From: Patescibacteria group bacterium | GTDB lineage: Bacteria > Patescibacteriota > JAUYIX01 > JBHPHK01 | DNA length: 64,000 bases | Reading direction: 5' to 3' | Assembly (NCBI GenBank): GCA_042569365.1 | Contig: JBHPHK010000002.1 | Coordinates: forward strand, 10,494 to 74,493 | Position numbers and translations under genes: made by a program | The notes under the pieces: model-generated | Databases searched by the model: none | What the model saw: only the letters and a program-made list of their open reading frames with translations | What the model was told of the DNA's origin: nothing | Part shown: positions 12,747 to 53,502 of the stretch, one piece after another | How the letters are laid out: each line of letters opens with the position of its first letter | Position numbering within the stretch: the stretch's first letter is position 1

Positions 12747-13754
12747 ATGACTAAAACGGATTTGAAAAAAACTTTCCCCACAACCATTTCCAAAAATATT
12801 TCATCTACAGAATCTTGGAAGATTGTTTTTGTTTTGATCGGAATCGCAGTCGTTAGTGTATCTGCAATTCAAATCATCAGAAAACAAATCGGGAGCATTG
12901 ATCCTGGCTCCATTGCGGCACAGATCAAGCCGGCGGAAGGAATTGAAAGCGTATCCGATCTCGACACTGATGGTGACGGTCTTTTTGACGCTAAAGAAGA
13001 GCATCTCGGAACAAATCCCCATAACAGTGATACAGATAACGATGGCTTCACTGACGGTGAAGAGATTTTCAACGGATACAATCCTTTATCTGCTGCAATA
13101 GATGGCAGCCAACAGAATTCAGTGAAGATTTTCGGCGAACCACGGGTGATGTATGAAAATATGCAGCCAACAATGACGAGCGCATCCGCAACTTCTGAAG
13201 CGCAGGCGGGAGTCGGAGGTTTAGGTGGTGAGGATGAGGTGATATTAGATAGCGGAGCGATCTCAGATATGTTGCGTCAGGTAAATACGCTAACTAATTA
13301 TTCGATGCCTGATATTAGCGGCATCCCAATCAATATCACGCAGACTTCCGGTAAAACACCAGTCGAGAACTATATGTACGACGTATTGGGCATATTTTCA
13401 CGCTGGGCTCCTTTTGATGACGAGGTAGATATTTCGAACTTTATTGCAGAGGTACAGCAGGGTAATTATGCGCGCGTCGGCGGAGTCATTGAAGCAAAAG
13501 AAGAAGGCCTGAAGGAATTAGCCGAGATTGAAGTTCCTGAAGAAATGTACGATCTGCACACTCAAGGACTGAAGCTCTTAATTGGCGGTAGCAATTCCTT
13601 GATTGCTTTACAGGGAGTAGGTGGTGCTGGCGGTGAAGAGGAGACGATGACACTCTTTTCTCAGATCCAGTATCTTGTAGACCAGACACAGTCATTAGTG
13701 ACAAATATTTCAGCAATAAGTCGAAATTACGACTTGCCATTTGTCTTTGAATAA
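12747..13754 (+). CDS. Membrane-anchored secreted protein with bacterial TSP3-type calcium-binding repeats
   Basis: N-terminal TM (IVFVLIGIAVVSVSAI). DLDTDGDGLFDAKEEHLGTNPHNSDTDNDGFTDGEE. First gene of the co-directional operon. Confidence 0.6.
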   Translation: MTKTDLKKTFPTTISKNISSTESWKIVFVLIGIAVVSVSAIQIIRKQIGSIDPGSIAAQIKPAEGIESVSDLDTDGDGLFDAKEEHLGTNPHNSDTDNDGFTDGEEIFNGYNPLSAAIDGSQQNSVKIFGEPRVMYENMQPTMTSASATSEAQAGVGGLGGEDEVILDSGAISDMLRQVNTLTNYSMPDISGIPINITQTSGKTPVENYMYDVLGIFSRWAPFDDEVDISNFIAEVQQGNYARVGGVIEAKEEGLKELAEIEVPEEMYDLHTQGLKLLIGGSNSLIALQGVGGAGGEEETMTLFSQIQYLVDQTQSLVTNISAISRNYDLPFVFE

Positions 13755-15417: not shown

Positions 15418-17217
15418 GTGAAAAAAATAAACACTCTAACATTTAAAAATATAAAAGAAAAAATTCGTAAGAACGAAGTTTTGCTTACGATCGGATTGAT
15501 ACTTGCGGTTGTTGCAATTGTTATCTTTGTGGTGCCATCGGGGGCCTATGCTGCTGGATTTGCAGAGTCTTTAGGTCTCTGGGTATTCCGCATTATTGCA
15601 TTTATGCTCCAGCTCTATGTAGCGCTTCTAGCGATTCTGATCGCCTTTATGTCTGTTATTTTTGACTGGGTAGCGGGATTTGGCGTCTTTAGTCAGGGAA
15701 CGATTAACGAAGGATTGCTGCGCGGCTGGACGCTGTTGGTGAACGTCGCAAACCTGGTCTTCATTTTAATATTGCTGTTTATCGGTATCGCAACAATATT
15801 CCGCGTCGAACAATTTTCAATTCGTCGCTTGTTTGTGCGCGTTATCGTGGCTGTTTTGCTAATAAATTTCAGCTTCTTCTTCACAAAGATTATCACTAAT
15901 GGCGCGGATACGATTCAAAATATTTTCACCAATGGCGCAGTTGTTTTTCCTGAGTGTAGAGAGGCGGGTGTTCCGATCAGCTGTACGATAGGAAACCTGG
16001 TCGGTATCGGAGATTTGAACTGGGAATCGTCTGTAGGAGGACAAATGGAAATTTTTGATACTCTCATGGCGACAGATAGTACCGACGCAGCACTTGATGT
16101 GGCTATTAAGTCTGCCTTTATGATGGTATTCTTTTCTATCTTCTTGTTTGCTATCGCTATAGTTACCATTCTACTCTTGGTGCGTATGGTGGTCTTATGG
16201 ATCCTGGCTACCATTTCGCCATTTGCCTATGTTGCTATGATTTTGCCGAGTACTCGACCGTACTCTAGCCAATGGTGGAATGCGTTATTCCGGTGGGCTC
16301 TGCTTGGTCCGCTGACTTTGATTTTGATAAACGTGGGGATTTTGGTTATGACGCCAATGCAAGTTGTCGTTGATAATATGCCTGGCGGCAATATAAATGT
16401 TGGTCTCTCACAGGTTGTATTAAATGGAGTGCAGGGGCTAGGACTTTTGATTGTGGCCTCAATCTTTATGATAGGTTCGTTGATGGTGGCGCGTCAGATG
16501 GGCGGTTCCATCGCGGGCGCAATCGTAAACAATGCCAATAAAGGAGCAAAGAATCTTGGAAAATGGGCCGGAGGAAAGGCTTCGGGCGCAGTTCTCGGCA
16601 GGAAGGACTCCAAGACAGGCAAGCGCACTGGCGGCTTGATTCGTCGCGCGCCTGGATTGAAGCAGGCTTCTCAAGCTCTTGAAGGACGCGCCAAGGCAAG
16701 ACAGCAAGCCGGCTTGTCACGCGAAAAAGATTACCAAAAAGGAGTTACAGCTAAGACGGGTAAGTATCGCAAGAAAGCAATTTTGGGCGGCAAACACTTT
16801 GATGAAACAGCAGATCCTGAATATAAAAAACGCATCAGTGAGGGAATTAAAGAAAATAAGGATCCAGGCAATTATGTAAGCGCAGAACACCAGTACGCAA
16901 TAATGGACCAGGCTATTAAAGATGGAGATAAAGAAAAAGCAATGATTGCCCATGGATCAATTGGTGCCAATAAAGATATGACTACCAGAAATGATGTTCG
17001 GGGAAATGATTTTAGAGCTGCTACAGATAGGATGCAGGCGGCAGGTTTTATAGATGAAAAACAAGCAGTTGGACATAAGAACGTTGCGCGCAAAGATTCT
17101 CAGAAACGCATTGAAAAGATGCGTGAAAAGAAGGGAAAAGAGGGTAAGAAGAAGCCAGGTAAGACTTATGTGGATGAGTTTGGTGTTAAACGAGATGAAG
17201 AAGGCAATGCAGTTTAA
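15418..17217 (+). CDS. VirB6/TrbL-like polytopic membrane protein of the T4SS
   Basis: ~8 TM helices in the first ~380 aa, then a ~220-aa Lys-rich hydrophilic tail. Its position next to VirB3/VirB4 homologues is typical for VirB6. Confidence 0.5.
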   Translation: MKKINTLTFKNIKEKIRKNEVLLTIGLILAVVAIVIFVVPSGAYAAGFAESLGLWVFRIIAFMLQLYVALLAILIAFMSVIFDWVAGFGVFSQGTINEGLLRGWTLLVNVANLVFILILLFIGIATIFRVEQFSIRRLFVRVIVAVLLINFSFFFTKIITNGADTIQNIFTNGAVVFPECREAGVPISCTIGNLVGIGDLNWESSVGGQMEIFDTLMATDSTDAALDVAIKSAFMMVFFSIFLFAIAIVTILLLVRMVVLWILATISPFAYVAMILPSTRPYSSQWWNALFRWALLGPLTLILINVGILVMTPMQVVVDNMPGGNINVGLSQVVLNGVQGLGLLIVASIFMIGSLMVARQMGGSIAGAIVNNANKGAKNLGKWAGGKASGAVLGRKDSKTGKRTGGLIRRAPGLKQASQALEGRAKARQQAGLSREKDYQKGVTAKTGKYRKKAILGGKHFDETADPEYKKRISEGIKENKDPGNYVSAEHQYAIMDQAIKDGDKEKAMIAHGSIGANKDMTTRNDVRGNDFRAATDRMQAAGFIDEKQAVGHKNVARKDSQKRIEKMREKKGKEGKKKPGKTYVDEFGVKRDEEGNAV

Positions 17218-19141: not shown

Positions 19142-19867
19142 ATGGCAAAGAAAAACACAACACCATTAGTACAGACGATGCAGAGTTCAGGTTTAGCAAA
19201 TAGACCAGGCCAAAAGCAGAGTACTCAGATGTATCTGGATGTCCAAGAGATCCGTGAAGGTACGGTTGTCTTAAAGGATGGCGCATTAAGATCTGTTCTG
19301 TTGGTATCCAGTATGAACTTTGCTCTGAAGTCTTATGAAGAGCAGGAAGCTATAATTCTTGGCTATCAGGGTTTCTTGAACTCTTTGGATTTCCCGATTC
19401 AGATAGTTATGCAATCCCGTGTCTTAGACATTACTGAATACATCGCGAAGCTAGCAGAGCTTGAAAAACAACAATCCAACGAGCTGTTGCGCATCCAAAC
19501 CGCTTCCTACGGAGAATATATTGGTGAGCTTGTGAAGATCTCCAATATCATGAATAAGAACTTTTATATAGTGGTTTCGTTTTCTCCAGTTGGCGCCAAG
19601 AAGGATTCATTTTTTGGTCGTCTCGGTAAGATTATGAATCCAACGCGCGTCATTAAGCAGGAGGCGCAAAAATTTGCCGAATATAAAAGCCAGTTAGAGC
19701 AACGAGTAATGCAAGTGCAGGGAGGACTAGGAGCAGTTGGACTGAAATCGTTAGCCTTAGGAACCCAGGAATTAATCGAGCTGCTTTATCAAAGTTATAA
19801 CACCGAAAATGTTGGGCAAAAGAGCCTGCCAGATATCGGTGAATTAGATTTAGATCAGACAAGCTAA
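19142..19867 (+). CDS. VirB4/TraC-family N-terminal domain, encoded as a separate ORF
   Basis: LDVQEIREGTVVLKDGALRSVLLVSSMNFALKSYEEQEAIILGYQGFLNSLDFPIQI resembles the CagE/TrbE/VirB N-terminal region. Stops 5 nt before the VirB4 ATPase ORF, which is in a different frame. Confidence 0.5.
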   Translation: MAKKNTTPLVQTMQSSGLANRPGQKQSTQMYLDVQEIREGTVVLKDGALRSVLLVSSMNFALKSYEEQEAIILGYQGFLNSLDFPIQIVMQSRVLDITEYIAKLAELEKQQSNELLRIQTASYGEYIGELVKISNIMNKNFYIVVSFSPVGAKKDSFFGRLGKIMNPTRVIKQEAQKFAEYKSQLEQRVMQVQGGLGAVGLKSLALGTQELIELLYQSYNTENVGQKSLPDIGELDLDQTS

Positions 19868-19872
19868 AATAT

Positions 19873-21759
19873 ATGGCTATTTTCAACCGCAACAATCAAA
19901 CAAATCAACAAGCCGGCGTAGTGCCGCCGGCAACTGCTGCTCCTCAGCAAGTAGTAGCTCCAGGTCAAGAGGAGCTAGAGGTTACGCGTGAGCGTGAAAT
20001 TCTTGAAGCAGAGCGCGTTTACCGTGAGGGCATCGCAACCGTCAAGGATATTATCGCGCCTTCTGCAATGAAGGTGTCTGCTGACAAGATCCAAGTCGGA
20101 GATCATCTAGCACGCACACTTTTTGTATATACATACCCGCGCTTTTTGCAGGTCGGATGGCTTTCACCGATCGTCAATATGAATCAGGCGATGGATATCT
20201 CTATGTTTGTTTATCCTGTTTCGTCTGAGAAGATTTTGAAAACCTTGCGTAAGCGGGCCGCACAAATCTCTTCACAAATAAGAATGGATGCTGAAAAAGG
20301 AAAAGTTCGTGATCCTCTGATCGAATCTGCTCAGGAAAACGTTGAGGTGTTGCGCGACCAGTTGATCCAAGGCACAGAACACCTTTATAAATACGCACTG
20401 TACATTACTCTTTATTCTAAGACTGAAGAAGGACTTGATGAGCTCACTGCTGAGATCGAATCTATTTTGGGTGCGCGCATGATTTTGACGAAGCATACTT
20501 CGTTCCAGATGGAACAAGGTTTCAATTCAACATTGCCACTTGGAAATGATGAGCTTGCGGTAACGAACAACATGAACACATCGCCGCTTGCCACATCTTT
20601 CCCATTCATTTCATCAGAACTCACAAGTAATGACGGAATCTTGTACGGCATCAATCGCCACAACAATAGTCTGATTCTTTTTGATCGCTTTAGCTTGGAG
20701 AATGCTAATTCCGTTATCTTCGCTAAATCAGGTGCTGGTAAAAGTTATACGACCAAGCTTGAGGTGTTGCGCAGCATGATGCTGGGAAGCGATGTGATTA
20801 TTATTGACCCAGAAAATGAATATGAACACATGGCGGCAACGGTTGACGGCGCATATTTGAATATTTCATTGGCTTCAGAAAACAGGCTTAATCCATTTGA
20901 CTTGCCGCGTGAAAGCGATGAGCAAAATGCAGATGTCATCCGTGGCGCCGTAACGAACGTGAAAGGCTTGATCAATCTTATGCTCGGGACTCTCAATGCT
21001 GAGGAAGATTCGATTATGGATCGTGCTCTCTTGGAGACATATGCTAAGAAAGACATCAATGAAAATAGTGATCTACGCACAGTAGAATTTCCGACGATGC
21101 AGGACTTGGCCGAGGTCTTAGAGGGTATTGAAGGCGCCGAGAACCTTCTCATTCGCATTAAGAAATACACCGAAGGTACTTTCTCCGGTCTTCTCAATAA
21201 TCCAACCAATGTTGATCTGCGCAGGCAGCTGATCGTATTTAATATTCGTGATCTAGAGGAAGAATTGAGGCCGATTGGAATGTATCTGATCTTAAACTAT
21301 ATCTGGAATATAGTTCGCCAGGAACTTAAGAAACGCATTCTAATCATCGATGAGGCCTGGATTATGATGCAAAATGATGACTCAGCTCGTTTCCTATTTG
21401 GTATGGCAAAACGCGCTCGTAAATATTTCTTGGGAGTAACCACGATCAGCCAGGATGTCTCAGACTTCTTGGCATCGCGTTATGGCAGAGCGGTGGTATC
21501 CAACTCCTCACTTCAATTGCTGTTGAAACAGTCGCCTTCAACAGTCGATCTGATTCAAGAAGTCTTCCATTTGACGGATGAAGAAAAATTCCTGCTTCTC
21601 GAAAGCGATGTCGGAGAGGGGATATTCTTTGCAGGTCTAAAACATGCCGCGATTCACATTGTCGCGTCTTACTCAGAAGACCAAATTATTACTAGTGATC
21701 CAAGACAATTATTACAAATTGAAGATGCCAAACGAGAATTTGCCGAAGCGCAAGGCTAG
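19873..21759 (+). CDS. VirB4-like T4SS ATPase (central and C-terminal AAA domains)
   Basis: Walker A FAKSGAGKSYTTK, Walker B ILIIDEAW, and the C-terminal motif TISQDVSDFL. Confidence 0.85.
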   Translation: MAIFNRNNQTNQQAGVVPPATAAPQQVVAPGQEELEVTREREILEAERVYREGIATVKDIIAPSAMKVSADKIQVGDHLARTLFVYTYPRFLQVGWLSPIVNMNQAMDISMFVYPVSSEKILKTLRKRAAQISSQIRMDAEKGKVRDPLIESAQENVEVLRDQLIQGTEHLYKYALYITLYSKTEEGLDELTAEIESILGARMILTKHTSFQMEQGFNSTLPLGNDELAVTNNMNTSPLATSFPFISSELTSNDGILYGINRHNNSLILFDRFSLENANSVIFAKSGAGKSYTTKLEVLRSMMLGSDVIIIDPENEYEHMAATVDGAYLNISLASENRLNPFDLPRESDEQNADVIRGAVTNVKGLINLMLGTLNAEEDSIMDRALLETYAKKDINENSDLRTVEFPTMQDLAEVLEGIEGAENLLIRIKKYTEGTFSGLLNNPTNVDLRRQLIVFNIRDLEEELRPIGMYLILNYIWNIVRQELKKRILIIDEAWIMMQNDDSARFLFGMAKRARKYFLGVTTISQDVSDFLASRYGRAVVSNSSLQLLLKQSPSTVDLIQEVFHLTDEEKFLLLESDVGEGIFFAGLKHAAIHIVASYSEDQIITSDPRQLLQIEDAKREFAEAQG

Positions 21760-22258
21760 CTACAAAATTGCGCTCAATATCTTAATAATAGTCGTCATTG
21801 TGGCGGGTGTTTTTTGGATCGGTAGTTATTGGATGCAAATGCCGACCGCTTCACTTATGAGCGGCAAGGTTGCTGAAGAAGAAACGATTGAAATGGTCAA
21901 AACTAAAGCACAACAAATAGTCGAGCTTTATTATACATATTCAGCAGGCGATAGTCCGATGTTGCTGCAGAGTCTCCAGACAAGCGCCACAACAAATGCG
22001 AAAAAACAAATCGCAGAGCTCATTGAAACAAGAAAAGAAACGCAAGGCGGCTTTGTGCAGGTAGCAACAGTAAATGAAACCACTGACGTAAACATTCGGG
22101 AGCGTGCCGCAGCCCTCGATTACACTTTGAAGATTCAACATTATCGTCTCGGTGCAGAAGTCCAGGAGCAAGAAATTTCTGCAACCATTCGTCTAGTTAA
22201 TGAGGATGGTGTTTGGCTTCTTGCCGCTCTTTCCCCCAGTGAAATAACATGGCCTTAG
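21725..22258 (+). CDS. Small bitopic protein: N-terminal TM plus a ~140-aa extracytoplasmic domain; possibly a VirB8-like component
   Basis: Start re-set to MPNENLPKRK... at 21725 (the track ORF starts at 21644). TM IALNILIIVVIVAGVFWIG. Overlaps the VirB4 end by 35 nt. The VirB8 assignment rests only on architecture and position. Confidence 0.35.
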   Translation: MPNENLPKRKASYKIALNILIIVVIVAGVFWIGSYWMQMPTASLMSGKVAEEETIEMVKTKAQQIVELYYTYSAGDSPMLLQSLQTSATTNAKKQIAELIETRKETQGGFVQVATVNETTDVNIRERAAALDYTLKIQHYRLGAEVQEQEISATIRLVNEDGVWLLAALSPSEITWP

Positions 22259-24273
22259 AGTCGCTCAAAAATAAATATTGGATTTTTACAATATTGTTGT
22301 TGGTCTTTATGTTTTGTTTTTTTGTGACTTTGGTGGTAATGCCTGAGCCAAGCTTTGGGTCTACTACAGACCAGGAAAACGATGAAATCAATGACACATT
22401 GAGCTGTAATGGAGCAACGGAAGATAGTCTTGGAGCCGATGCGGATGTCAGTGACTACAATGAGCCGGTTGATGTGACGATAGATGAGGGAAGCGATCTG
22501 ATTGAGTACGATTTTGACGCAGATCAGATCTATGACTCGTCTCAAGCTTTCGTCGGAACGCCACAAGCAGAGATCTTTACACCATCTTATTCATTTCCGG
22601 TGGGCGCAGAGGTATTTCTAAATTTAAACCCGCTCTTTTTCAACTTAACGACGACCAATTTCAGCGATCTTTATGTTGCCTGGTTTCGGGATGACTTTCC
22701 GATGCAGGGCGTGGTAGCGGGTGCAGACTTTTCTACTCTGGAGGGTTTAACGGTAACAGGTATTGGTAACCCGGTTCCAGTCTGTAATTCCGTGAGTCGT
22801 TTAGCTGCGCTTGATACAGACGCAGATGGTCTCGATGATGAATGGGAGCGTCGCTACTTTGTTGATCGCAATCTAGCAGAGTCTATCGAAGCGGTTCTGC
22901 CTGATGATGACTTTGACAGCGACGGAGCTTTGCCGATCAATGCGGTGAATACTGCCGGTGAATTCATAACTGTAGTTCCAGCAGTCTTAGGACAAGATTC
23001 TCTGGATGGAAAATATACCAACTTAGAAGAATACGTTTGGGGCACTGATCCAACCAGTCCAGACACAGACGGCGACGGCCACAGAGACGGGGACGACATC
23101 CTGGGAACGGGTCAAATCCATTTCCTTTATATGAACGAAAAGGAATTCGGTGAGGAGGCTACGGTTGTCCGTGCAACAGCAGTCGGTACAGCTATGCAGC
23201 GCACCTCCAATGACGAGCGTTTGATCAAGATCGACAGTACGACCATAGACATCCTTACTACCAATGAAGAAAACCTGGACGGACACATTATCTTAGAAGA
23301 TAAATATATCCTGCCAAATGAATCGGGCGTGGCTAGATTCGAGCCAATCGGAACCGGGGCTCAGGCGAAGACTCTGGAAATCAACTGGTATGTCGATGGA
23401 GACTTGCAGACGGCGCAATCCGGTTTTTCCCAAACAGTCTTGGACTTTAAAATACCAAGCGATAAAACGACAGGAGATTATCTTGTCATAGCGGCGGCGG
23501 CCACTAATCCAACAACCGGTCAAATATCAAGAATAAGCGAAGTGATCCGTATCGGAGAGCCGATGGTGATGAGTTATCTGGCAGATCAAGCTTTTGCAGA
23601 CGAAATTCTGCCAGTTACGGTTAACTTTTTAAATCCAAATGCTCGCCAAGATTACGTTTATAAATGGTTCATTGATAACACATGGCAGGAAGATATTTCT
23701 GGCCCAGGTCGCAATACACTGCCGCTGGAAATAACCAAGCAAATCGAAGGCGATACTATGGATGTGAAAGTGCAGGTCTTCGAGATCAATTCAAGTGAAA
23801 TGGTCATAGAATTGGAAGAAGAAATTCCTGTTGTAGCGCCAAGTGTGGATTTAATACTCGCACCAGAGAGGCCGCAAGCCGGCAGTACAGTCACAGTTAT
23901 AGCAGACCTGACTCGTTTTCCTGGAAATTCTGTAGAATTTGATTGGACTATTGATCGGTTCGAAGTCGAACAAAAACAAAGCAGTCAAATTAGTTTTACA
24001 GCAGGCGAAATAGGAGCTGAGCATATTGTAGAGCTTGGCGTGCAAAACGATAGAGAACACAGTGATTATGCGGAGGCCATTGCGTTTATCGAGATTTACC
24101 CGTCATCGATCAGTAGTTCAAGTTTTTTAAACTCATCGTTCGGGAAAATACTAGCGCGCCTAAATGTTTCCTCACCTATTCCAATATTAACTTTCTGTGG
24201 CATTGTCCTCGTGATTTTCATAAGTCTTCTGGGAATCAAGAAAGCAACTAATCGTCCTTATAATGACGCGTAA
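22249..24273 (+). CDS. Double-anchored (N- and C-terminal TM) surface protein with TSP3 repeats; paralog 1 of 3
   Basis: N-terminal TM. ENDE...SCNGATED. DTDADGLDDEWERRYFVDRNLAESIEAVLPDDDFDSDG. NLEEYVWGTDPTSPDTDGDGHRDGDDILGTGQ. C-terminal TM ILTFCGIVLVIFISLLG. Confidence 0.7.
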   Translation: MALESLKNKYWIFTILLLVFMFCFFVTLVVMPEPSFGSTTDQENDEINDTLSCNGATEDSLGADADVSDYNEPVDVTIDEGSDLIEYDFDADQIYDSSQAFVGTPQAEIFTPSYSFPVGAEVFLNLNPLFFNLTTTNFSDLYVAWFRDDFPMQGVVAGADFSTLEGLTVTGIGNPVPVCNSVSRLAALDTDADGLDDEWERRYFVDRNLAESIEAVLPDDDFDSDGALPINAVNTAGEFITVVPAVLGQDSLDGKYTNLEEYVWGTDPTSPDTDGDGHRDGDDILGTGQIHFLYMNEKEFGEEATVVRATAVGTAMQRTSNDERLIKIDSTTIDILTTNEENLDGHIILEDKYILPNESGVARFEPIGTGAQAKTLEINWYVDGDLQTAQSGFSQTVLDFKIPSDKTTGDYLVIAAAATNPTTGQISRISEVIRIGEPMVMSYLADQAFADEILPVTVNFLNPNARQDYVYKWFIDNTWQEDISGPGRNTLPLEITKQIEGDTMDVKVQVFEINSSEMVIELEEEIPVVAPSVDLILAPERPQAGSTVTVIADLTRFPGNSVEFDWTIDRFEVEQKQSSQISFTAGEIGAEHIVELGVQNDREHSDYAEAIAFIEIYPSSISSSSFLNSSFGKILARLNVSSPIPILTFCGIVLVIFISLLGIKKATNRPYNDA

Positions 24274-26380
24274 ATCAGTAATCATAAGTATATTTTTAAT
24301 AGCTCTTATCGGAGGGTCGTTTTGGCTGTGGTCGCATTACTCTTATGTAAATGGCGAAACGTGGACTGATCACGAAAATGACGAGGCGGATGTACATGCG
24401 GGTGGTCCACACGACATATTTGCGTGTAATGGCGTTCAGGAAGACATGCAGGCACCCACAGGATCATATAACAATTCCTTTCCGCCAGTACAAGTGGATG
24501 CAGATATTGACTGGGATGATCAGGATATAGATATCAACGAAGACTGGATGTCCGATACTCAATTTAATCAAATGATCAGCGAGGGTAGCTTAAGTATGCA
24601 ATCTCCGCAATTGGACATTGCCTTGAGTCCGGTAGCTCCAGAAGAAGGACAAGAAATTGAAGCGACTGCTGCAGTGCAAATGTTGCGTTCGACAGATATG
24701 GAAAGCATGGATACTTATTTTGCCTGGTCGTTGGACGGAGTTTCAATGATGGGTGTTGTGGCCGGGGGCGATCCTTTAGATCTCCTGCCTTCATCTCTGC
24801 GCGACTCCTGCACGACAGTGACGCGCATCCCAGATACAGATGTTGACGGTGACGGCATGGATGATGCGTGGGAAGAGCGCTATTTTGTGCGCCGCAATCT
24901 GGCGGATTCCATCGCAGATGTCTTACCGGAGGACGACGGAGACCTTGATGGCTTTGCGCCTATTGATCTGGTCAATCTTCAGGGTCAACCATTGATCTTA
25001 ACACCGCTACTGAGCACAGCTGCCACTGTGCCGACAGGCACTTTAGATATTCAAGACTCAGCTTACACCAATCTCGAAGAATATATTTGGGGAACTGATC
25101 CAACAGACCCTGATACTGATGATGATGGATACTTGGACGGAGAAGATATTGCCGGACGCGGTCAACTTTCTCTTAAATTCACACCAACCAAAGGCGTTCA
25201 CGATTTCCCGCCGCATCAATTGCGCGCAACAGTCGGAGGAATTTCCTTCCAAACATTGACAGACGACACTCACGACTCTGAAGAATTAGTTAAGTTAGAT
25301 AGTGATGTCAAAGACGTTTTTATCTCAACTGGAGAGAAGCTGGAAGGAATCCTAAATATGCAGCCGGATATAGCGGCGCCTGGAGAGACGGTTACATTTA
25401 CATTCCAACCTCTTCAAACGGATGCTGATCCCGGAGCATTAGCTTACGAATGGCGGTTTGATGGTGAGCCAAAAACTAATCCTCTGCCATCAGCTGAGAT
25501 ATTTGAGTATCTGATTCGTCCTACTGAGCATGAGCCACGCTCCGCAATTGATGTTGATCTGGAGGTGGTCAATCCATCAACGGGGCAATTAACAACTATT
25601 CAAAGTTCATATTTTGTAGCTGAGCCTATCGATCTCGTGCCGATGGATGCTGACATTGTCCCAGGTTCTAGTACAACAGTTAACACATATCTAATATCCG
25701 GCGCAGATCCGAGCGATTTTCTTTTCAAGTGGTATGTCGATAACTCTTTAGATGAAAGAGCTTCGGGGGTTGGTAATAATTCTTTGACATTTGATGTAGA
25801 AGAGGATTTTGGCGGCTATCATCGGGTAAAGCTTGAACTCTTCGACATTAGTAATAGCCGTTTGGTTGGTAGGCAACAAATTGATCTTCCTATCGCCGGT
25901 CCATCTATTGAGCTAACTTTTATTCCTGAAATAGCACAGCCAGGAGAGACGGTGACAGTCGTGGCTGAGGCTGTTAATTTTCCACGAAATCTAGACACCG
26001 ATCAGGACGATATTAATGATGCTTCTCAGATAGAATTTGTATTTGAGCTTGATGGGGCGGAGGTCGGATCAGACATCAACGCAGCAGGAGCAGGGACGAT
26101 GTCGTTTACAGCAGGTAATGATAATGAAATTTATAAGATAAATATTTCGGCAAAAACTACTGGTGAAGAATTTCAATCGGCAGAGGCGATAGGCCAATAT
26201 CAAGTTGGCGCGGGCCCCATTTCATACGAAACCAGTCTTTTTAATCGTTTTACAGCATCGCTTATCCAGAATCCACGAACCTATATTATTTCTGTGATTT
26301 CAATTGGAATTATCACGTTAATATTCTTTCTTGTCTTGCGCAGTATGATGCCGCGTAAAGCAAATAGAAACCAAACTTAA
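24263..26380 (+). CDS. Double-anchored TSP3-repeat surface protein; paralog 2 of 3
   Basis: IFACNGVQED. DTDVDGDGMDDAWEERYFVRRNLADSIADVLPEDDGDLDG. NLEEYIWGTDPTDPDTDDDGYLDGEDIAGRGQ. C-terminal TM. Confidence 0.7.
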   Translation: MTRKSVIISIFLIALIGGSFWLWSHYSYVNGETWTDHENDEADVHAGGPHDIFACNGVQEDMQAPTGSYNNSFPPVQVDADIDWDDQDIDINEDWMSDTQFNQMISEGSLSMQSPQLDIALSPVAPEEGQEIEATAAVQMLRSTDMESMDTYFAWSLDGVSMMGVVAGGDPLDLLPSSLRDSCTTVTRIPDTDVDGDGMDDAWEERYFVRRNLADSIADVLPEDDGDLDGFAPIDLVNLQGQPLILTPLLSTAATVPTGTLDIQDSAYTNLEEYIWGTDPTDPDTDDDGYLDGEDIAGRGQLSLKFTPTKGVHDFPPHQLRATVGGISFQTLTDDTHDSEELVKLDSDVKDVFISTGEKLEGILNMQPDIAAPGETVTFTFQPLQTDADPGALAYEWRFDGEPKTNPLPSAEIFEYLIRPTEHEPRSAIDVDLEVVNPSTGQLTTIQSSYFVAEPIDLVPMDADIVPGSSTTVNTYLISGADPSDFLFKWYVDNSLDERASGVGNNSLTFDVEEDFGGYHRVKLELFDISNSRLVGRQQIDLPIAGPSIELTFIPEIAQPGETVTVVAEAVNFPRNLDTDQDDINDASQIEFVFELDGAEVGSDINAAGAGTMSFTAGNDNEIYKINISAKTTGEEFQSAEAIGQYQVGAGPISYETSLFNRFTASLIQNPRTYIISVISIGIITLIFFLVLRSMMPRKANRNQT

Positions 26381-26386
26381 ATCCAT

Positions 26387-28384
26387 ATGTCGATCAACTG
26401 GAAAAAAAGAATAGCAATCCTTCTCGTAATTTTTCTGGCAGCAGGCAGCGTCAGTTTTTGGAATATGGATTTTACAAACGCGATTTCTGATCCAGAAAAC
26501 GACGAAGACGCCGACATATTTGCGTGTAACGGTGTCAGGGAAGATGCTTTTGGAAAAGCAACTCAGTCGTCTCTAGACGAGCAATGGCCGCCAGCTCATG
26601 TAAGTGGCAAAAACGTTGTCTTTGACTATGATCCAGATGAAATAGCGGGTCGGGCGATGGCAGAAGTAGACGCACCGCGCGCCAGCATTATGACCTCGAG
26701 TCGCATGGGCCAAAACAGCGTCGATGAAAATATTGCCCTATCAGCCTTACCGCTAGTATTTGATACAACTGAAAATGACCAGGGCGATATAAGTTTTTCC
26801 TGGTCTATCGACGGGACGTCAATTATGGGCGTAGTGGCTGGCGCTAGTTCATTAGATTTGCCAGAGAGCGGGGGAGAGCATTGTAGTACAGTTACGCGTA
26901 CGCCAGAAACAGATACAGATGGCGATGGCATGGATGATGCATGGGAACAGCGCTACTTCGTAGATACTGCCGCCTTCGGCTCTATTGCAGAAGTCTTGCC
27001 GGGTGATGATTATGACCAGGACGGCATTATCGCAGATCAGTTTTTAAGTTCAGACTCAGGTCAAGCTCTGATAAACAGTCCGACAACAAGTGTTGGACCT
27101 CCTGGCGACGGCATATTTACAAACTTGGAGGAATATATTTGGGGTACGGATCCAATTGATGCGGACACAGACGATGACGGCTTTATAGACGGAGAAGATA
27201 TTCTTGGTCTTGGTCAGTCGAGCATTGAGCTTGATCCAACAATATTTATTTCAGAAAGCACTAACAGGTTTAACGTTCGTCTGACAATACTAGGCTACTG
27301 GGCGGCGCGTGACAATGAAAACAATCGCATTGCAAAGCTAGATAGCACCGAAGAAGTAGTGATCGTGAGTGAAGAAGAAGACATGGAAGTTAGCTTGCGT
27401 TTAGAAAATCGAACAACACCAAGGCCTGGTGACATTATTAAGGTACAGGCTCAGGTTAGAGACACGCGATCCTTGTCTGACGTCTTAAATTATCGGTGGT
27501 ATGTAAATGGGGTTGAACAAGTTGATGCTAGCGGTGCAGGAGCTCACATTTTGAACTATCCGCTTTCGACAGCGGTCGCGCCAGAGACGAAAGTCGAGAT
27601 CAGAGTAGAAGCCTACAACGAGACCACTGGCGATATTGCAGAAGATACAATATATTTCCAGGTAGGACAGCTTGTAGCATTTGAATACGATCCCGTTAAA
27701 GTCTTTCAGGGAAATGAAATAACTGTCGGAACAATTTTCCCAGACACAATAGAGAAGGACGATTATGTTTTCCGTTGGACGATTGATGGCATCCAGCAAA
27801 AAACCAAATCTGGTTTAGGCCAAGATGAGATTGAGTTTGTGATAGATAAGCCAGAATTTGAGACACATACAGTTGAGCTTGATATCATTCGCCGCTATGA
27901 TAGTACGGTCTTGGCGACAATTAGCGAGGAAATTGGAATAATTTCTCCAAAAGTAACGCTAGTCATTACTCCTGAAGTTATTGCGCCGGGCAGTACAGTC
28001 ACTCTGCAAACTCTGACCCAAGCCTTTGGCTCGACAAATTTAAAATATGAATGGCAAATAGATGGTCAGGATATAGAAGACGCATCATCAAGTATATTGA
28101 GCTTTACGGCTGGAGAGTCTGGAGCGCAGCATATGGCTGAGGTGGTTGTAACAGATTTACGCAGCGATCATTCTATTTCTGCTACTGCGCTAGCGGACAT
28201 ATATGTCAGCAGCACATCTTCCAACGAGGGGAATAGCATCATTAGTCTAGCAGCCAGTCTGCTTGACAGTGCGCCAAAAGTTACGCTTGCCATTACAGGC
28301 TTTATACTGCTTATGATAGCGATCTTTGCTATACTAAGGAGTGTGAGTGCTGGATCTAAACAAACTTCTGTTAAACAATCATAA
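26387..28384 (+). CDS. Double-anchored TSP3-repeat surface protein; paralog 3 of 3
   Basis: IFACNGVRED. ETDTDGDGMDDAWEQRYFVD. NLEEYIWGTDPIDADTDDDGFIDGEDILGLGQ. C-terminal TM ITGFILLMIAIFAIL. Confidence 0.7.
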   Translation: MSINWKKRIAILLVIFLAAGSVSFWNMDFTNAISDPENDEDADIFACNGVREDAFGKATQSSLDEQWPPAHVSGKNVVFDYDPDEIAGRAMAEVDAPRASIMTSSRMGQNSVDENIALSALPLVFDTTENDQGDISFSWSIDGTSIMGVVAGASSLDLPESGGEHCSTVTRTPETDTDGDGMDDAWEQRYFVDTAAFGSIAEVLPGDDYDQDGIIADQFLSSDSGQALINSPTTSVGPPGDGIFTNLEEYIWGTDPIDADTDDDGFIDGEDILGLGQSSIELDPTIFISESTNRFNVRLTILGYWAARDNENNRIAKLDSTEEVVIVSEEEDMEVSLRLENRTTPRPGDIIKVQAQVRDTRSLSDVLNYRWYVNGVEQVDASGAGAHILNYPLSTAVAPETKVEIRVEAYNETTGDIAEDTIYFQVGQLVAFEYDPVKVFQGNEITVGTIFPDTIEKDDYVFRWTIDGIQQKTKSGLGQDEIEFVIDKPEFETHTVELDIIRRYDSTVLATISEEIGIISPKVTLVITPEVIAPGSTVTLQTLTQAFGSTNLKYEWQIDGQDIEDASSSILSFTAGESGAQHMAEVVVTDLRSDHSISATALADIYVSSTSSNEGNSIISLAASLLDSAPKVTLAITGFILLMIAIFAILRSVSAGSKQTSVKQS

Positions 28385-28388
28385 CCAC

Positions 28389-29525
28389 ATGTCAGTTATA
28401 TCCAAAAAAGTATTAATAATTTATGCAATTGCATTTGTCGGCATAATTTGCTTCGCAACAATTAGTTGGGCTCTTAGTACTCAAGATTTTATTACAGTTT
28501 CAGAAAAGAGGATTGGTGAAAGTGATAGGGGAGTGACATGGGAGTTGACAATCAGTAATGGCAAAGAGAAAGCCGACGATTGTACGACGCCAAGTAACGG
28601 TCTACCTCCTGATCTGTATAAAGTAGTTCCGATCAGTTCAGGAGGATCAATACAGCCCCCTGATAAAAGTGGCTTAATTGTTATTGAGGGGGATGATGAA
28701 ATTGTATCCGGTTGGTCTCTGAGTCGTAATGCAATTCAGGCTCATAATGATGATACAGTGAAGGTTTTAGTTCTAGGTGAGTCGGCTAAGTTTTACGTAC
28801 AGATCTATTGTTGGAAAGAAGGAATGGCTACTGTAGATGAATACTTTAACGTTATGAACGATGCTTATTTCTTTGATGGCAATGAAGAAATCAATGACAG
28901 TGTTACTGATAAAAATTCAATGGAAATCGAACTCCTGGGCGTTAATATAAATGACCAAGATGGTGATCAATTAAGGGATGAGGATGAAAAGAGTGATCGT
29001 TGTCCGCACATCTTAATTCCGGACAGTGATGGAGATGGATCAAAAGACGGAAATGACAGTAGTGGTCCTTGTATTAACACCAATTACACTAATAGTCCCA
29101 ATATAATCTACGGCAGTAAAGATGAGTGTACGACGGCAATAGGCGATCGTGCTAATGACGATCCGCCATCTGTCTGCTATGCGCTAAGTGGCATTGATGG
29201 CAAGACTTATTACCGTGAAGGAAAGCCTTCAGGTGTGAATAGTTCTATTGATCCTGAGAGCTTGGATGTAAGCGGATGGGATCCAGACTTAACACCTTTT
29301 AGGGCATTAATTGGCACATATTATAATATTGCAATTTCTTTTGGTGCTTTGGCGGCAATTATAATGATTATTATAGGCGGTTATCAATATGCTACTGCGG
29401 CGGGTAATCAAGCGCGCATATCCCAGGCAAAAACAACTATAAACTATGCATTACTAGGACTTGCAGTTGTGATCTTGGCGGCAGTCTTCTTAAATCTTGT
29501 TAATCCCGCTATCATCGGCGGATAA
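28389..29525 (+). CDS. Membrane protein with an Asp/Cys-rich extracellular domain and a C-terminal VirB2/T4SS-pilin-like two-helix hairpin
   Basis: N-terminal TM. Extracellular DQDGDQLRDEDEKSDRCPHILIPDSDGDGSKDGNDSSGPC. C-terminal hairpin FGALAAIIMIIIGGYQYATAAGNQARISQAKTTINYALLGLAVVILAAVF. Start chosen at the ATG at 28389, after the upstream stop. Confidence 0.45.
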   Translation: MSVISKKVLIIYAIAFVGIICFATISWALSTQDFITVSEKRIGESDRGVTWELTISNGKEKADDCTTPSNGLPPDLYKVVPISSGGSIQPPDKSGLIVIEGDDEIVSGWSLSRNAIQAHNDDTVKVLVLGESAKFYVQIYCWKEGMATVDEYFNVMNDAYFFDGNEEINDSVTDKNSMEIELLGVNINDQDGDQLRDEDEKSDRCPHILIPDSDGDGSKDGNDSSGPCINTNYTNSPNIIYGSKDECTTAIGDRANDDPPSVCYALSGIDGKTYYREGKPSGVNSSIDPESLDVSGWDPDLTPFRALIGTYYNIAISFGALAAIIMIIIGGYQYATAAGNQARISQAKTTINYALLGLAVVILAAVFLNLVNPAIIGG

Positions 29526-44744: not shown

Positions 44745-47700
44745 ATGACACAGACACGCTTCAAAAAACTCCAGTCACTTTCTCACAAACCTGTCTTCAA
44801 GGTCGGCTTGTTTGTTTTGGTAATCGCGGTGGCGAGCGGAATCGCGTTTACGCAGTATTTTGACACGACGACAGCTGCTACTAGTACGGATCCAGAACAA
44901 GGCATCTGGACGGACTCATTTACAGATGATGACGGTTTAGAGAGCACTAGTGATGCCGATGAAGGCTTGGTGCAAATTCAAAACCTCAAAATCAACAGCG
45001 CTCTTGATAGAGTTGAACTTTTTAGTGCTGGCTCTCAAGGCTCAGCGATCGCCAAAATTCCGCCTATCGCTGTACAAAATTGGGAAGACTTTTCAGTTTC
45101 TGGCGGAGGAGACTTAGTAAGGTTTTACGTATTATATGAAAATGCATCAGGTGACTGGGTGAGAGTTAATAAATCATTATTGCCGGATGATACTGTAAAA
45201 TTTGGCAATAACGACACAGGATATAAATTCACAGGTGGCAATCTGAATGTAGATATAAGTGCGCTTTCTGTTGTGGATTATCCCGCCCTTCGCATGCAGG
45301 TTGTTTTCCCAGCAGGAAGTAGCACTGATTATTTAGATGAGTGGACATTAAATTGGTTGCCCAAACCAGGAGCAACGATTGATGTTCTCATGCCGGCGAC
45401 TACTTATGGTGACTCTATGATGAGAATTAAAATACAGATATACAATTCCGGTCCAACGCTTGAAAATACAATCTTGAAAGTAAATAATTTGCCAATAGCA
45501 TCATGTCCCGATGCGTCGGGAGTAAGTATTAGCGCTTCTAATGATCTTGTTGCTCTGTGTCAAAGTCCGTTGCGTGACGCCGATTACGATGGTGTAGAAC
45601 CGCATCTATATAGGGGTCCAAATGACTTTGGAAATTCTAAAGGGGATTTTCAAGATCTAAATATTGCCCGTACGCCACTTCCTCCCCTTGATGGAACGGA
45701 TTATCCACGCATGTATAATAGCTACGGTCAAGCTATGGATTTCTTCAAGAATCGCTACGACGCAACTTATCTTTCGTCAACAAATGACGGGATATTTAAC
45801 GGCAAGACTACATACGATCCGAGAGATGATGAAATCATTTGGAATCTTGGTGATATTTCCGGAGGTACAACGGAAGTTATTTATTCTATCTATGTGTCCA
45901 AAGGTTTTGTGGATGCTGGTCTCTTAACGCAGCTAGAAAATGATGTTGAACTATGGGCTACTGTGGGTGGGTCATCCCAATTGATTTCTACTAATTCTGA
46001 AGATGTATCCTCTAAAGTTCAAAGTTTCGGAAATAGAATACTTATAGCGCCCGCTTCTCAAAATATGGAAGGCAACGTTGGTGAAAAAGCTTGGTTAACA
46101 TTTGGAATATACAATTCCCAGTCCGGTACTGGATCAGAGAGCGCACCATATTTACAGCCAGGTTATTCCGATCTGTATGGTGTTACATTTAAGGTAACTT
46201 TACCAGATGAATTAGTGTATGTTCCCGACGATAGTTTAAACTCTAGTTTTAGTTATAAAGTCATTGATAAGTATACAGGTATAGAACTAGGTGATCCGGA
46301 TTATTATAACGGCTGGATGCATTATCACCCTCCTGAAACTTTCGCTCCCTGTTCATTTGGGATAGGAACTGGCTCATACCCGTGTTCCTATTCTAGTTCA
46401 AATGCTAAATTTATAGCCGTAGGTAGCGATGTACGAGCACATTCTTTCGAAAGAGCCGATGGGCCAGAATTTGTACAGAATGGACAAGAGCTTTCTTGGT
46501 ATATACCGCGTTTCGCACCGGGCTTATTCCAATTCAGTATTAAAGTTGAATTAACAGCGCCTTTAGCAGAGGGTACTAAATTATACTGTGGCGCTGATAC
46601 AGCGCAACTTGATGTTGTATATCCAGACATTGGTAATATTGATGATCTTGGTATATATGAACAATTTGATGAAGCCTGTACAATCACGCAAGCACCTTTA
46701 ATTAATAAGCCAGTTCTTTCTTATAACGGGGGGATAGCAACGATCGTTGAGGATGATGGCCGCATTCACTCTAACCATACGTCTGTTAAAATCTATAATA
46801 GAAATGATGAGTTTGTCGGCCCATTCAAACAAACAAAATTATTTATGCGTTTGTCTAGAAATAATTTTCAAACTACAGGACTAGTTTCAGATTATATAAA
46901 TAATCCACACCCTCAATTAACATCTGATGTCTTATCAAATCCAGTACTGGCACATACGCGCATAAATATTACAGATCAAATCAATGAAAGACTTCACGAT
47001 TGGACTTGTCCATACGGAGCGGGTAATTGCGGCGCTATAAATGAATCTGATCATCCTAATGGTGATTGGGAAAGTGGCGCATTATACAGTCAGAGATACT
47101 ATCCAGGTTCTGGATTTTATCATTATCTTGGTTATTATCACGATTGGGCTTCAGATAATATTGACTGGCCGGATGATTACAAAAGTATGCTAGAAGCCGA
47201 TGGATCTAATTGGGACATGCTGGAAGAAAGTCCTTTCTTGGTGGATGGGAGTGAAGATTTTACGGTTTATGTCAGTGATTCCACTTGTGAGCCTGGAGAT
47301 TTAGATGCCGATTGTCCGGGAATAAATACTATTGATCCAGCAGTGCGTAATATTTACAAAACTCCATATCCGGTATTTTCGCAAAATGGTGAGTATTTTG
47401 ATGTCGATTCAGGTACGCCAGTTGATGACTCATGGTGTAAGTGGGATATCATAAAGAACAATACAACTTCTACAAACACTCCCTGTGGTTATAGACCACA
47501 AGATATTGCCTGGATTGTTTATATTGATGACGCAGAGCTCCCTATCTCGGGGGATCGTACATATAGAGCTAGTATTGAAATAGATGATGGTACTTCTGAG
47601 AATTCAGAAGTAGGCAAGACAATTGGCAGGTTGATGCGTGTTGAAGCAACTAGTGTAAAAGGGATCGAAGAGACTAGATGGTGGGGTGCTATGGATTTCA

Positions 47701-50099: not shown

Positions 50100-50310
50100 A
50101 AAAATTAAGGTTTCTAACTAAAAGATTAACATAATTTAACTGTTTTTTAGTTGTGCATAGAAAATTGGCTTAAAAATGTAATAAAAACACCAAAAACTAT
50201 TGACAAATATATAACAATATTGTCTAATAATCCAATTTTAGGAAACTATAATAAAGTTGATTAGTGTGGATAAGAACGTTGTTTTGCAGGCTTGTTCGTG
50301 GCATAATTAA

Positions 50311-50351
50311 CGCAAGAAATCTAAAGCAATTAAGAGGCTATCGATTTCTTG
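50311..50351 (+). promoter_or_regulatory. 10-bp perfect inverted repeat in the pilM leader
   Basis: GCAAGAAATC-N21-GATTTCTTGC. Not followed by a U-run, so not a terminator. Lies ~80 nt upstream of the pilM ATG. Confidence 0.3.
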
Positions 50352-50428
50352 CATTACTTCCCAAAATTTTTCCGAGAAGATATCTTCTCGTGTTGCTGTT
50401 AAGGCAAATTAAGCAAGAACTCACCAAC

Positions 50429-51481: not shown

Positions 51482-51527
51482 TTTAAATACTACTTTCTAA
51501 TTTCATTCTTCATTAATCACTAAATCA

Positions 51528-52226: not shown

Positions 52227-52243
52227 GCTAATACATAATTACA

Positions 52244-52837: not shown

Positions 52838-52861
52838 GCTAATTAACTAACTACTTTGAAA

Positions 52862-53494: not shown

Positions 53495-53502
53495 AATAAA
53501 CT

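Follow-up and report, generated by a model that had tools for sequence, protein, structure and literature searches.

A VirB4-type motor probably encoded by two adjacent intact genes in a chromosomal type IV secretion locus of a Patescibacteria bacterium

Quinonero-Coronel et al. (2025, Microb Genom, PMC12102498) describe TrsD as the most abundant component of type IV secretion systems (T4SS) in the Patescibacteria. They count 2,272 homologues, of which 1,664 are located close to virB4, and report the protein to be essential in Ca. Southlakia epibionticum. According to the same source, TrsD is remotely homologous to the N-terminal portion of VirB4; the sections of that paper used here state the homology, without a description of fission, of collinearity with fused forms or of the anatomy of the junction. 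Most T4SS clusters of Patescibacteria are reported in the literature to be devoid of a relaxase gene. The TrsD/TraD and TrsE/TraE proteins of pGO1 and pSK41 belong to the MPF-FATA type, pGO1 subclass, of staphylococcal conjugative plasmids. In pSK41 the gene of a small hypothetical protein (25492-25899) is followed by trsD (25886-26569, ~227 aa) and, after a gap of 14 nt, by the gene of a DUF87/VirB4 ATPase (26584-28602, ~672 aa). The same order, small membrane protein, TrsD-like protein, DUF87/VirB4, is also found in the Bacillota plasmids pGspE55-1 and pJFP838A. The split TrsD-VirB4 arrangement is already published (PMC12102498) and is usual both among Patescibacteria and for systems of the pGO1/pSK41 type. 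In the R388 structure, the protomers of each VirB4 dimer are linked through their N-terminal domains, which are also inserted in the membrane and touch both VirB3 and VirB8 (reviewed in PMC12857230).

The window analysed here is the whole stretch of 64,000 nucleotides from positions 10,494 to 74,493 of contig JBHPHK010000002.1 (assembly GCA_042569365.1) of a Patescibacteria group bacterium. It shows the MPF-FATA (pGO1-like) order VirB3-like, TrsD-like, VirB4, with a PrgI-family gene directly 5' of the split VirB4 pair formed by ORF1 and ORF2 (Table 1), and NCBI annotates the region as three separate intact genes. The locus shares with the published Patescibacteria TrsD-VirB4 pairs the phylum, the gene pair and the PrgI/VirB3-like gene upstream, as well as a VirB2-like pilin domain nearby and a chromosomal position among housekeeping genes. 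A Pfam scan of 27 ORFs of the window returned no relaxase or VirD4-type coupling protein (T4CP) domains, which are lacking there too. Within what those parts of PMC12102498 describe, no substantive difference emerged, and the locus is one more instance of these pairs. In contrast to the conjugative plasmid pSK41, which encodes a relaxase as well as a VirD4-like coupling protein, the present cluster is chromosomal, with neither of them among the ORFs scanned. Compared to full-length VirB4 (R388 TrwK, or the CD1110 family of Bacillota ICEs), ORF1 and ORF2 provide the same domains in the same order, but the chain is broken after the first ~200 residues, inside the N-terminal domain and not at the boundary between the N- and C-terminal domains.

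Table 1. Features of the T4SS gene cluster (positions in the window)
Feature	Position	Strand	Basis or remark
Polytopic membrane protein, 599 aa, candidate VirB6-like channel subunit	15418..17217	+	Position and topology only
PrgI-family (VirB3-like) small membrane protein, 154 aa	18665..19129	+	PF12666 PrgI
ORF1, TraC-like/TrsD-like stand-alone protein, 241 aa	19142..19867	+	ATG start; ORF list, profile matches, AF2 model
Intergenic spacer AATAT, 5 nt	19868..19872	+	Between ORF1 stop and ORF2 ATG; sequence
ORF2, short-form VirB4 ATPase, 628 aa	19873..21759	+	ATG start; NF045971 above cut-off
Protein with C-terminal T4SS pilin (VirB2-like) domain	28347..29525	+	PF18895 T4SS_pilin

The PrgI-family protein (named 'PrgI family protein' by NCBI, MFC1632615.1) matched its Pfam model with an E-value of 7.6e-9 and 36.4 bits (cut-off 27), and contains a hydrophobic stretch at aa 39-57 and beyond. 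A PrgI gene also precedes the TrsD-like gene in a related locus (L045) and in pGspE55-1 and pJFP838A. The 599-aa protein, in which at least seven hydrophobic segments were recognized and for which no Pfam or family match was obtained, may be a VirB6-like channel subunit of the same cluster, as its position and topology suggest. In L045, a long gene (789 aa, no Pfam match) is located two genes upstream of PrgI. The pilin-domain protein closes the same plus-strand gene block on its downstream side; it matched its Pfam model over aa 322-385 (E 7.1e-7, 29.6 bits, cut-off 26.6) and has two C-terminal hydrophobic segments. Rfam and tRNA scans of the window revealed three tRNAs only and no feature at the ORF1/ORF2 junction.

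ORF2 carries features of VirB4 ATPases, namely a Walker A motif (SGAGKS, aa 286-291, nt 20728-20745), a Walker B motif (ILIIDEAW, aa 489-496, nt 21337-21360) and a RecA-like C-terminal domain (aa ~250-607). The latter is preceded by a variable N-terminal tail (aa 1-~45) and by the second half of the VirB4 N-terminal domain (aa ~50-250). Residues 250-607 matched the VirB4 C-terminal domain of PDB 4ag5 with an E-value of 1.4e-49, and the Pfam matches were P-loop_TraG, AAA_10 and DUF87, with partial TraC_F_IV and CagE_TrbE_VirB matches at aa 147-223. NCBI names the protein VirB4-like conjugal transfer ATPase, CD1110 family, and the corresponding model NF045971 (conju_CD1110) was matched with 379.3 bits (cut-off 325) and an E-value of 3.5e-113. 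However, ORF2 does not cover this model over its full length: the match extends over positions 181-728 of 752, and positions 11-120 are matched by ORF1 instead. Against the VirB4_plasma model, ORF2 matched positions 292-890 and ORF1 positions 100-233 of 894 (E 2.9e-8 for the latter). ORF2 aa 154-574 align to TrwK residues 307-735, and the first ~200 residues of TrwK are therefore left to ORF1. The pSK41 ATPase is 26% identical to ORF2 over 596 aa (E 1e-45), and the N-terminal ~200 residues are missing in both.

The 241-aa product of ORF1 is recorded by NCBI as a 'hypothetical protein' (MFC1632616.1) and has neither Walker motifs nor a transmembrane segment. In the precomputed annotation, the 'TraC-like' family PF26593.2 is assigned to this very protein (P0001) and to each of the 119 other homologues listed. 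When ORF1 was run with hmmscan against a Pfam copy presumably lacking PF26593, the sole match was C2_DCK_4th at chance level (E 0.029). The NCBIfam TrsD/TraD model NF041427 was matched over positions 21-143 of 201 with 23.3 bits and an E-value of 4.9e-5, but its cut-off of 200 was not reached. An hhalign comparison of the ORF1 profile with pSK41 TrsD gave a probability of 61%, an E-value of 8e-5 and 22% identity over 189 columns, that is, an alignment over nearly the full length of TrsD, yet a very remote relation. Judged from sequence, ORF1 thus appears as a remote homologue of the TrsD/TraD proteins of pGO1/pSK41, not as a member of the narrow NF041427 subfamily. Homology searches retrieved 750 ORF1 homologues, the best 120 of which are all 198-267 aa long, and 2156 cluster representatives of the family, of which 149 among the best 150 are unfused. 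ORF1 hence belongs to a large family of stand-alone proteins of ~200-260 aa. Long disordered tails were seen on the stand-alone module in P0128 and P0137. The best 120 homologues of ORF2 are also all short (596-698 aa), and none of them contains PF26593. The split is the rule, since the best 120 ORF1 homologues, 149 of the 150 representatives and the best 120 ORF2 homologues are unfused.

The fold of ORF1 was compared to the PDB by Foldseek using an AF2 model (pLDDT 81). The top 14 matches were all R388 TrwK/VirB4 chains with probabilities of 0.99-1.0, and all following matches had probabilities of 0.3 or less. The TM-score (query) reached up to 0.53 over ~213 aligned columns, with modest E-values (1e-3). 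PDB searches by sequence, with ORF1 alone or as a 50-sequence profile, gave nothing meaningful, and only the fold comparison recovered VirB4. The predicted fold thus corresponds to a VirB4 N-terminal subdomain, the N-terminal placement coming from collinearity and not from the fold match.

Rare natural fusions provide part of this collinearity. A protein of 898 aa (P0259) and three archaeal proteins of ~1015-1039 aa (L034, L037 and L040) contain an ORF1-like part followed by an ORF2-like part, in the same order as in the split pair, and in P0259 a Pro/Ala-rich linker joins both parts at the split position. ORF1 is collinear with these fusions and is placed at the N-terminal ~200 residues of VirB4 because the profiles, the TrwK range aligned to ORF2 and the fusions are all collinear. 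It is the equivalent of the first ~200 residues of full-length VirB4. An earlier note, based on the sequence alone, had assigned the VirB4 N-terminal region to ORF1, in which the peptide DVQEIREGTVVLKDGALRSVLLVSSMNFALKSYEEQEAIILGYQGFLNSL occurs, and the ATPase core to ORF2, and had proposed to verify this by profile coverage; the complementary NCBIfam matches, together with the Walker motifs in ORF2, bear out both assignments, ORF2 being short of a full N-terminal domain.

Taken as a whole, we consider with a probability of about 0.93 that ORF1 and ORF2 are two intact, separately translated genes that jointly make the VirB4-type motor of a chromosomal monoderm-type (MPF-FATA, pGO1-like) T4SS. 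ORF1 would be the detached N-terminal module (TraC-like PF26593/TrsD-like), and ORF2 would be a short VirB4 that retains the remaining N-terminal domain together with the RecA-like ATPase domain. By analogy with R388, the ORF1 protein may bind non-covalently to ORF2 and also to the upstream PrgI/VirB3-like protein, and this binding might anchor the ATPase hexamer at the membrane.

At the junction, the sequence features described by the earlier note were confirmed. The TAA stop of ORF1 (19865-19867) and the ATG of ORF2 at 19873 are separated by 5 nt, and ORF2 is in the -1 frame relative to ORF1. Its frame is open from 19843, after a TGA at 19840-19842, and not before. A TTAGATTTAGAT repeat lies at 19844-19855, with a tandem TTAGAT repeat there, and an AAAA run at 19866-19869. 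No Shine-Dalgarno motif precedes ORF2, but such a motif was found before only 3 of the 55 genes of the window, so that its absence is normal and makes this test of independent initiation uninformative. The tight stop-start junction is consistent with translational coupling; with a 5-nt junction in a genome almost without Shine-Dalgarno motifs, coupled translation might yield roughly equal amounts of both subunits.

A full-length fusion VirB4 could also arise, besides or instead of the two proteins, by programmed -1 ribosomal frameshifting or by readthrough of the stop codon near 19843-19867, as 10 codons before the ATG of ORF2 are open in its frame, overlap the tail of ORF1 and contain the tandem TTAGAT repeat. 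However, no slippery heptamer of the type X XXY YYZ is present in the last 67 nt of ORF1 (19800-19867), and the TTAGATTTAGAT repeat and the A-run were rejected as slippage sites, as no heptamer fits and the indel that distinguishes the closest relative, L047, lies in the spacer after the stop. The repeat itself is kept in L047 and encodes a conserved peptide, ELDLDQ.

Orthologous loci were then compared. In 10 of 11 other Patescibacteria (CPR) loci, the homologue of ORF2 directly follows that of ORF1, at 41-53% identity, with the same stop/ATG junction. The gaps in these 10 loci range from -26 to +5 nt, the relative frames are 1 or 2 and the junction sequences are unrelated. The gap is 13 nt in L045, and in archaeal relatives 37-380 nt or even occupied by an intervening gene. 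The ORF1 homologue is not always next to its partner: in L009 (Peribacteraceae) there is no VirB4 within 3 kb, and it is also unlinked from virB4 in L035 and L036. L047, which comes from an independent sample (DRR203715) and whose ATPase is 92% identical to ORF2, has kept the TAA stop and the MAIFNR start, but its spacer is 6 nt long; both genes are therefore in the same frame, separated by the conserved TAA. Up to the stop, the tail of ORF1 differs from that of L047 by 57 synonymous versus 13 non-synonymous codons, with 16, 5 and 66 differences at the first, second and third codon positions, respectively, and the N-terminus MAIFNR is conserved from the ATG of ORF2 itself. This pattern shows that ORF1 is under purifying selection in its own frame and that both the ORF2 protein and its start are conserved.

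These comparisons speak against recoding on several counts. From genome to genome, the shift needed would differ (-1, +1 or 0), and the junction sequences are not conserved. In L047 a frameshift would abolish the fusion, as the genes are in frame behind the TAA. ORF2 has its own conserved ATG and N-terminus, and archaeal relatives tolerate long gaps or an intervening gene. Since there is no slippery site and the relative frame varies, being zero in the closest relative, we discard programmed frameshifting as very improbable. The difference in frame between the two ORFs, on which the earlier note laid stress, is incidental, and no role is evident for the A-run or the micro-repeat.

A sequencing or assembly indel that split a single virB4 gene of ~870 aa into two frames could in principle account for two ORFs that are separated by 5 nt and shifted by one frame, with short repeats and an A-run at the junction, the more so as fused forms occur naturally. 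We hold this to be extremely improbable, because the stop/start junction recurs in independent assemblies of both distant and close relatives, in the 10 other CPR assemblies with differing gaps and frames. The TAA conserved in frame in the independent sample L047 means that no indel could explain the split there. The conservation of MAIFNR from the ORF2 ATG, the unfused state of the closest 120 homologues of each ORF and the absence of a frameshifted-pseudogene flag from NCBI PGAP likewise argue against it. Thus, of the three options listed in the earlier note, the real split gene stood, and the assembly frameshift and programmed frameshifting fell; the comparison of orthologues that it had suggested gave a split in 10 of 11 other CPR loci and in L047.

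It is hardly credible that ORF1 is a conserved accessory protein without relation to VirB4, placed before a VirB4 that is complete and naturally short, and that its N-terminal likeness is spurious. ORF1 does form a conserved stand-alone family, it scores far lower against the VirB4 models than their cut-offs demand (32 bits versus 590), and the PDB profile search by sequence was empty. However, the weak matches are collinear, N-terminal in two independent VirB4 models and complementary to ORF2, the predicted fold retrieves VirB4 chains only, and fusions in the expected order occur in bacteria and archaea. In addition, the first ~180 positions of the family model that ORF2 matches best are missing from ORF2, and PMC12102498 states that TrsD and the N-terminal part of VirB4 are remotely homologous. 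ORF1 is thus stand-alone and conserved, yet related to VirB4 by fold, profiles and fusions, and not the unrelated protein that the earlier note had named as refuting its proposal.

For the pair of separately translated genes, a role of the detached module beyond neutral fission is a speculative and rather doubtful idea. As a free subunit it could let CPR bacteria and DPANN archaea tune its stoichiometry, or bridge PrgI/VirB3 and the ATPase as an independent adaptor. Alternatively, the two separate genes could represent the ancestral state, from which the canonical VirB4 arose later by fusion. The occurrence of the split pair in both CPR bacteria and DPANN archaea, which are episymbiotic, might reflect shared or exchanged host-interaction machinery.

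For annotation, MFC1632616.1 should be described as the N-terminal subunit of the VirB4 motor instead of a 'hypothetical protein', and neither a frameshifted pseudogene nor a recoding event should be recorded for the ORF1/ORF2 pair. The naturally detached N-terminal module could serve as a handle for structural or interaction work on VirB4-VirB3 docking, an idea that is not new to this locus. The locus adds one more example to the T4SS of Patescibacteria. In the single species tested, components of this system, the TrsD homologue among them, are essential for growth as an epibiont (PMC12102498).

ORF1 (TraC-like/TrsD-like protein) and ORF2 (short VirB4 ATPase) were both found at the positions claimed in the earlier note. 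ORF1 ends with a TAA codon at 19865-19867, which is followed by five bases (AATAT) and the ATG of ORF2, whose frame is -1 relative to that of ORF1. A TGA at 19840-19842 closes the ORF2 frame, which is therefore open only from 19843, and the TTAGATTTAGAT repeat and the AAAA run mentioned in the note are both present. The two ORFs are preceded by a gene for a PrgI-family (VirB3-like) membrane protein (Pfam E 7.6e-9), and the NCBI annotation of the source record contains three intact genes, coding for a PrgI family protein, a hypothetical protein and a VirB4-like ATPase. No Shine-Dalgarno sequence was detected before ORF2, which is uninformative because such a motif (GGAG/GAGG/AGGA in the preceding 20 nt) accompanies only 3 of the 55 predicted gene starts of the whole window. 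The regions upstream of the gene starts are A/T-rich (window GC 43.8%), and translation in this genome seems to start mostly without Shine-Dalgarno pairing.

Features of the window discussed in the text
Feature	Position	Strand	Product or remark
First gene of the + strand block	12747-13754	+	bacterial TSP3 (thrombospondin type 3) repeats, E 5.8e-12
ORF1	19142-19867	+	241 aa
ORF2	19873-21759	+	628 aa
ORF next after VirB4	21644-22258		204 aa; one hydrophobic segment (aa 42-60); no family match
Three consecutive large proteins downstream of VirB4	22249-28384		674, 705 and 665 aa
Large protein	44745-49409		1554 aa
Type IV pilus gene set	50264-55380 and onward		~30 kb from the T4SS cluster
PilM	50264-51481		
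PilB/MshE-type T2SSE ATPase	53503-55380		

ORF2 scored 379 bits with the NCBIfam model "VirB4-like conjugal transfer ATPase, CD1110 family" (curated cut-off 325), of which it covers only positions 181-728 of 752; judged by this score it is a member of that VirB4 family, though without its N-terminal ~180 positions. It contains the Pfam domains P-loop_TraG, AAA_10 and DUF87, Walker A and Walker B motifs and, at aa 147-223, partial matches to the end portions of the TraC_F_IV and CagE_TrbE_VirB N-terminal-domain models. Alignments were also obtained with the crystallised VirB4 C-terminal domain 4ag5 (E 1.4e-49) and with residues 307-735 of TrwK, the VirB4 of R388. ORF1 weakly matched positions 11-120 of the CD1110 model, N-terminal and complementary to the coverage by ORF2, as well as positions 100-233 of 894 in a mycoplasma VirB4 model (E 2.9e-8). 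An AlphaFold2 model of ORF1, based on an alignment of 50 homologues, was confident over residues ~28-220 (mean pLDDT 81). When it was compared with all solved structures using Foldseek, the 14 best matches were TrwK/VirB4 chains of R388 (probability 0.99-1.0), and all subsequent ones had a probability of at most 0.3. The collinear model coverage, the Foldseek matches and the 4ag5 and TrwK alignments thus bear out the proposal that ORF1 corresponds to the VirB4 N-terminal region and ORF2 to the ATPase core. No hydrophobic segment was found in either protein.

The exact ORF1 protein is listed in precomputed tables under PF26593.2, a stand-alone domain family named "TraC-like". A local Pfam-A scan of ORF1 (19142-19864) did not return PF26593; this model is probably newer than the local library or missing from it, and Pfam negatives obtained with that library can therefore hide recently added families. 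The match to the TrsD/TraD family model was weak (E 4.9e-5; 23 bits for a cut-off of 200), which places ORF1 outside this narrow NCBIfam subfamily, as a remote homologue of it.

The best 120 of the 750 ORF1 homologues obtained by a word-indexed search are all 198-267 aa long, and the best 150 of the 2156 cluster representatives from an exhaustive search all, but one, measure 125-443 aa. Similarly, each of the 120 best ORF2 homologues has 596-698 aa, and none contains the ORF1 domain. Among 42 genome loci fetched using ORF1, an ORF2 homologue lies directly downstream in 10 of the 11 other Patescibacteria loci. The Patescibacteria junction gaps are -26, -1, 1, 1, 1, 2, 2, 2, 4, 5 and 5 nt, with relative frames of 1 or 2 and unrelated junction sequences. 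A contig of complete-genome scale (L045) has the order PrgI, TraC-like, VirB4 with a 13-nt gap. In Candidatus Peribacteraceae (L009, 4001-4645), no ORF2 homologue was found within ~3 kb downstream of the ORF1 homologue (43% identity), in agreement with the available text of PMC12102498, which reports Gracilibacteria TrsD homologues as not VirB4-associated. Locus L001 (CAZQRI010000016.1), from a MAG labelled 'uncultured Gammaproteobacteria bacterium', agrees in its ORF coordinates, and almost completely in its junction sequence, with the locus of a Magasanikiibacteriota MAG (L002, JBPOIO010000001.1); the Gammaproteobacteria label probably reflects an error of binning or taxonomy.

The closest relative is contig L047, which comes from an independent sequencing run (DRR203715); its ATPase and ORF2 are 92% identical. 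In the DNA alignment (86% identity), the TAA stop and the MAIFNR start are kept and the spacer contains a one-base indel; it is therefore 6 nt long in the relative, and both genes are in the same frame. Over the last 130 ORF1 codons, the differences at the three codon positions number 16/5/66, and 57 of the codon changes are synonymous against 13 non-synonymous ones, a pattern indicative of purifying selection on ORF1 in its own frame up to its stop. Programmed frameshifting, one of the explanations envisaged earlier, is rejected, as the shift needed differs between close relatives, so that a signal at the junction cannot be conserved, and as no X XXY YYZ heptamer occurs in the final 67 nt of this ORF1. 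An assembly indel that broke one gene into two frames is likewise rejected, since it cannot explain the in-frame TAA between the two genes of the closest relative. The split is thus real, as shown by four independent lines (family lengths, junctions in other genomes, the closest relative and the lack of a frameshift signal), and the option of a real split gene was the right one, given the unfused families, the recurrent junctions and the selection on ORF1.

Rare natural fusions exist, namely the bacterial protein P0259 (898 aa) and three archaeal ORFs (L034, L037 and L040; 1015-1039 aa), along which ORF1 and then ORF2 align in order and without overlap. Residues 11-223 of P0259 match ORF1 aa 25-235 and residues 266-892 match ORF2 aa 15-616; a Pro/Ala-rich low-complexity linker of ~85 residues joins the two parts precisely where the split occurs. 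Variability or poor prediction also marks the first ~45 residues of ORF2 and the C-terminal ~20 of ORF1, and the break is therefore in a flexible linker. According to the TrwK alignment, this linker falls within the canonical VirB4 N-terminal domain, beyond the first ~200 residues of that domain, rather than where the N- and C-terminal domains meet. Two stand-alone ORF1 homologues, P0128 (443 aa) and P0137 (432 aa), carry low-complexity Pro/Ala/Gln-rich C-terminal tails of ~200 residues, and together with P0259 they mark the break point as a hot spot for disordered insertions.

ORF1 (27-40% identity) and ORF2 homologues are also encoded by DPANN and other archaeal MAGs, including Iainarchaeum, Altiarchaeales and Nanoarchaeota (L013-L042; for example L021 4001-6876, L034 3677-6757 and L035 1905-6674). 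Most archaeal pairs are split, with gaps of -4 to 380 nt, and three are fused; at two loci the gap of 891-1695 nt leaves room for another gene. The ORF1-like open frames are longer in archaea (~280-335 aa). No published account of these homologues in DPANN was found in the available text of the literature.

The + strand block around ORF1/ORF2 (about 12.7-30.7 kb) also encodes a protein with a T4SS pilin domain and a polytopic membrane protein that is, by topology, a candidate VirB6-like component; neither a relaxase nor a coupling protein was found among the window ORFs scanned. The block lies among chromosomal housekeeping genes (RecG, UvrD, NAD-dependent ligase and KsgA). The syntenic block of L045 likewise opens with a gene bearing a faint TSP3 match. 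The 204-aa ORF overlaps the 3' end of VirB4 by 116 nt from its first ATG or by 35 nt from Met28 (21725), and its counterpart in L047 (2235-2768, 177 aa) does so by 41 nt; the ORF lies where a bitopic VirB8-like subunit would fit. For the 674-, 705-, 665- and 1554-aa proteins, Pfam gave no family match at E<=1e-4. In L045 (692 and 678 aa) and L047 (657 and 683 aa), VirB4 is likewise followed by proteins of similar size, and these large proteins may be parts of the system that are conserved but uncharacterised, or its surface proteins. Several small ORFs after the T2SSE ATPase may encode pilins.

ORF1 and ORF2 are thus two conserved, tightly juxtaposed genes with a PrgI-family gene in front. In the R388 structures, the VirB4 N-terminal domains link the protomers within each dimer, are embedded in the inner membrane and make contact with VirB3 and VirB8 (reviewed in PMC12857230). 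By analogy, ORF1 probably encodes a subunit that docks non-covalently onto the ORF2 ATPase and PrgI, which would tether the hexameric motor to the translocon in the membrane. Translation of the two genes is probably coupled through the 5-nt junction.

Comparable arrangements are found on plasmids. The gene order of pSK41 is a small protein, TrsD (227 aa), 14 nt and a 672-aa DUF87/VirB4 ATPase, which is 26% identical to ORF2 from ATPase residue 36 onward (E 1e-45); its TrsD aligned weakly with the ORF1 profile over 189 columns (probability 61%, E 8e-5). The Bacillota plasmids pGspE55-1 and pJFP838A carry PrgI, an ORF1 homologue (29% identity, E 3e-21) and then a DUF87 ATPase. The available text of Quinonero-Coronel et al. 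2025 (PMC12102498) describes the TrsD-VirB4 arrangement in Patescibacteria, where TrsD is the most abundant T4SS component (2,272 homologues, 1,664 of them VirB4-associated), and reports TrsD as essential in Ca. Southlakia epibionticum. The split arrangement is the rule in Patescibacteria and was already known from the literature and Pfam.
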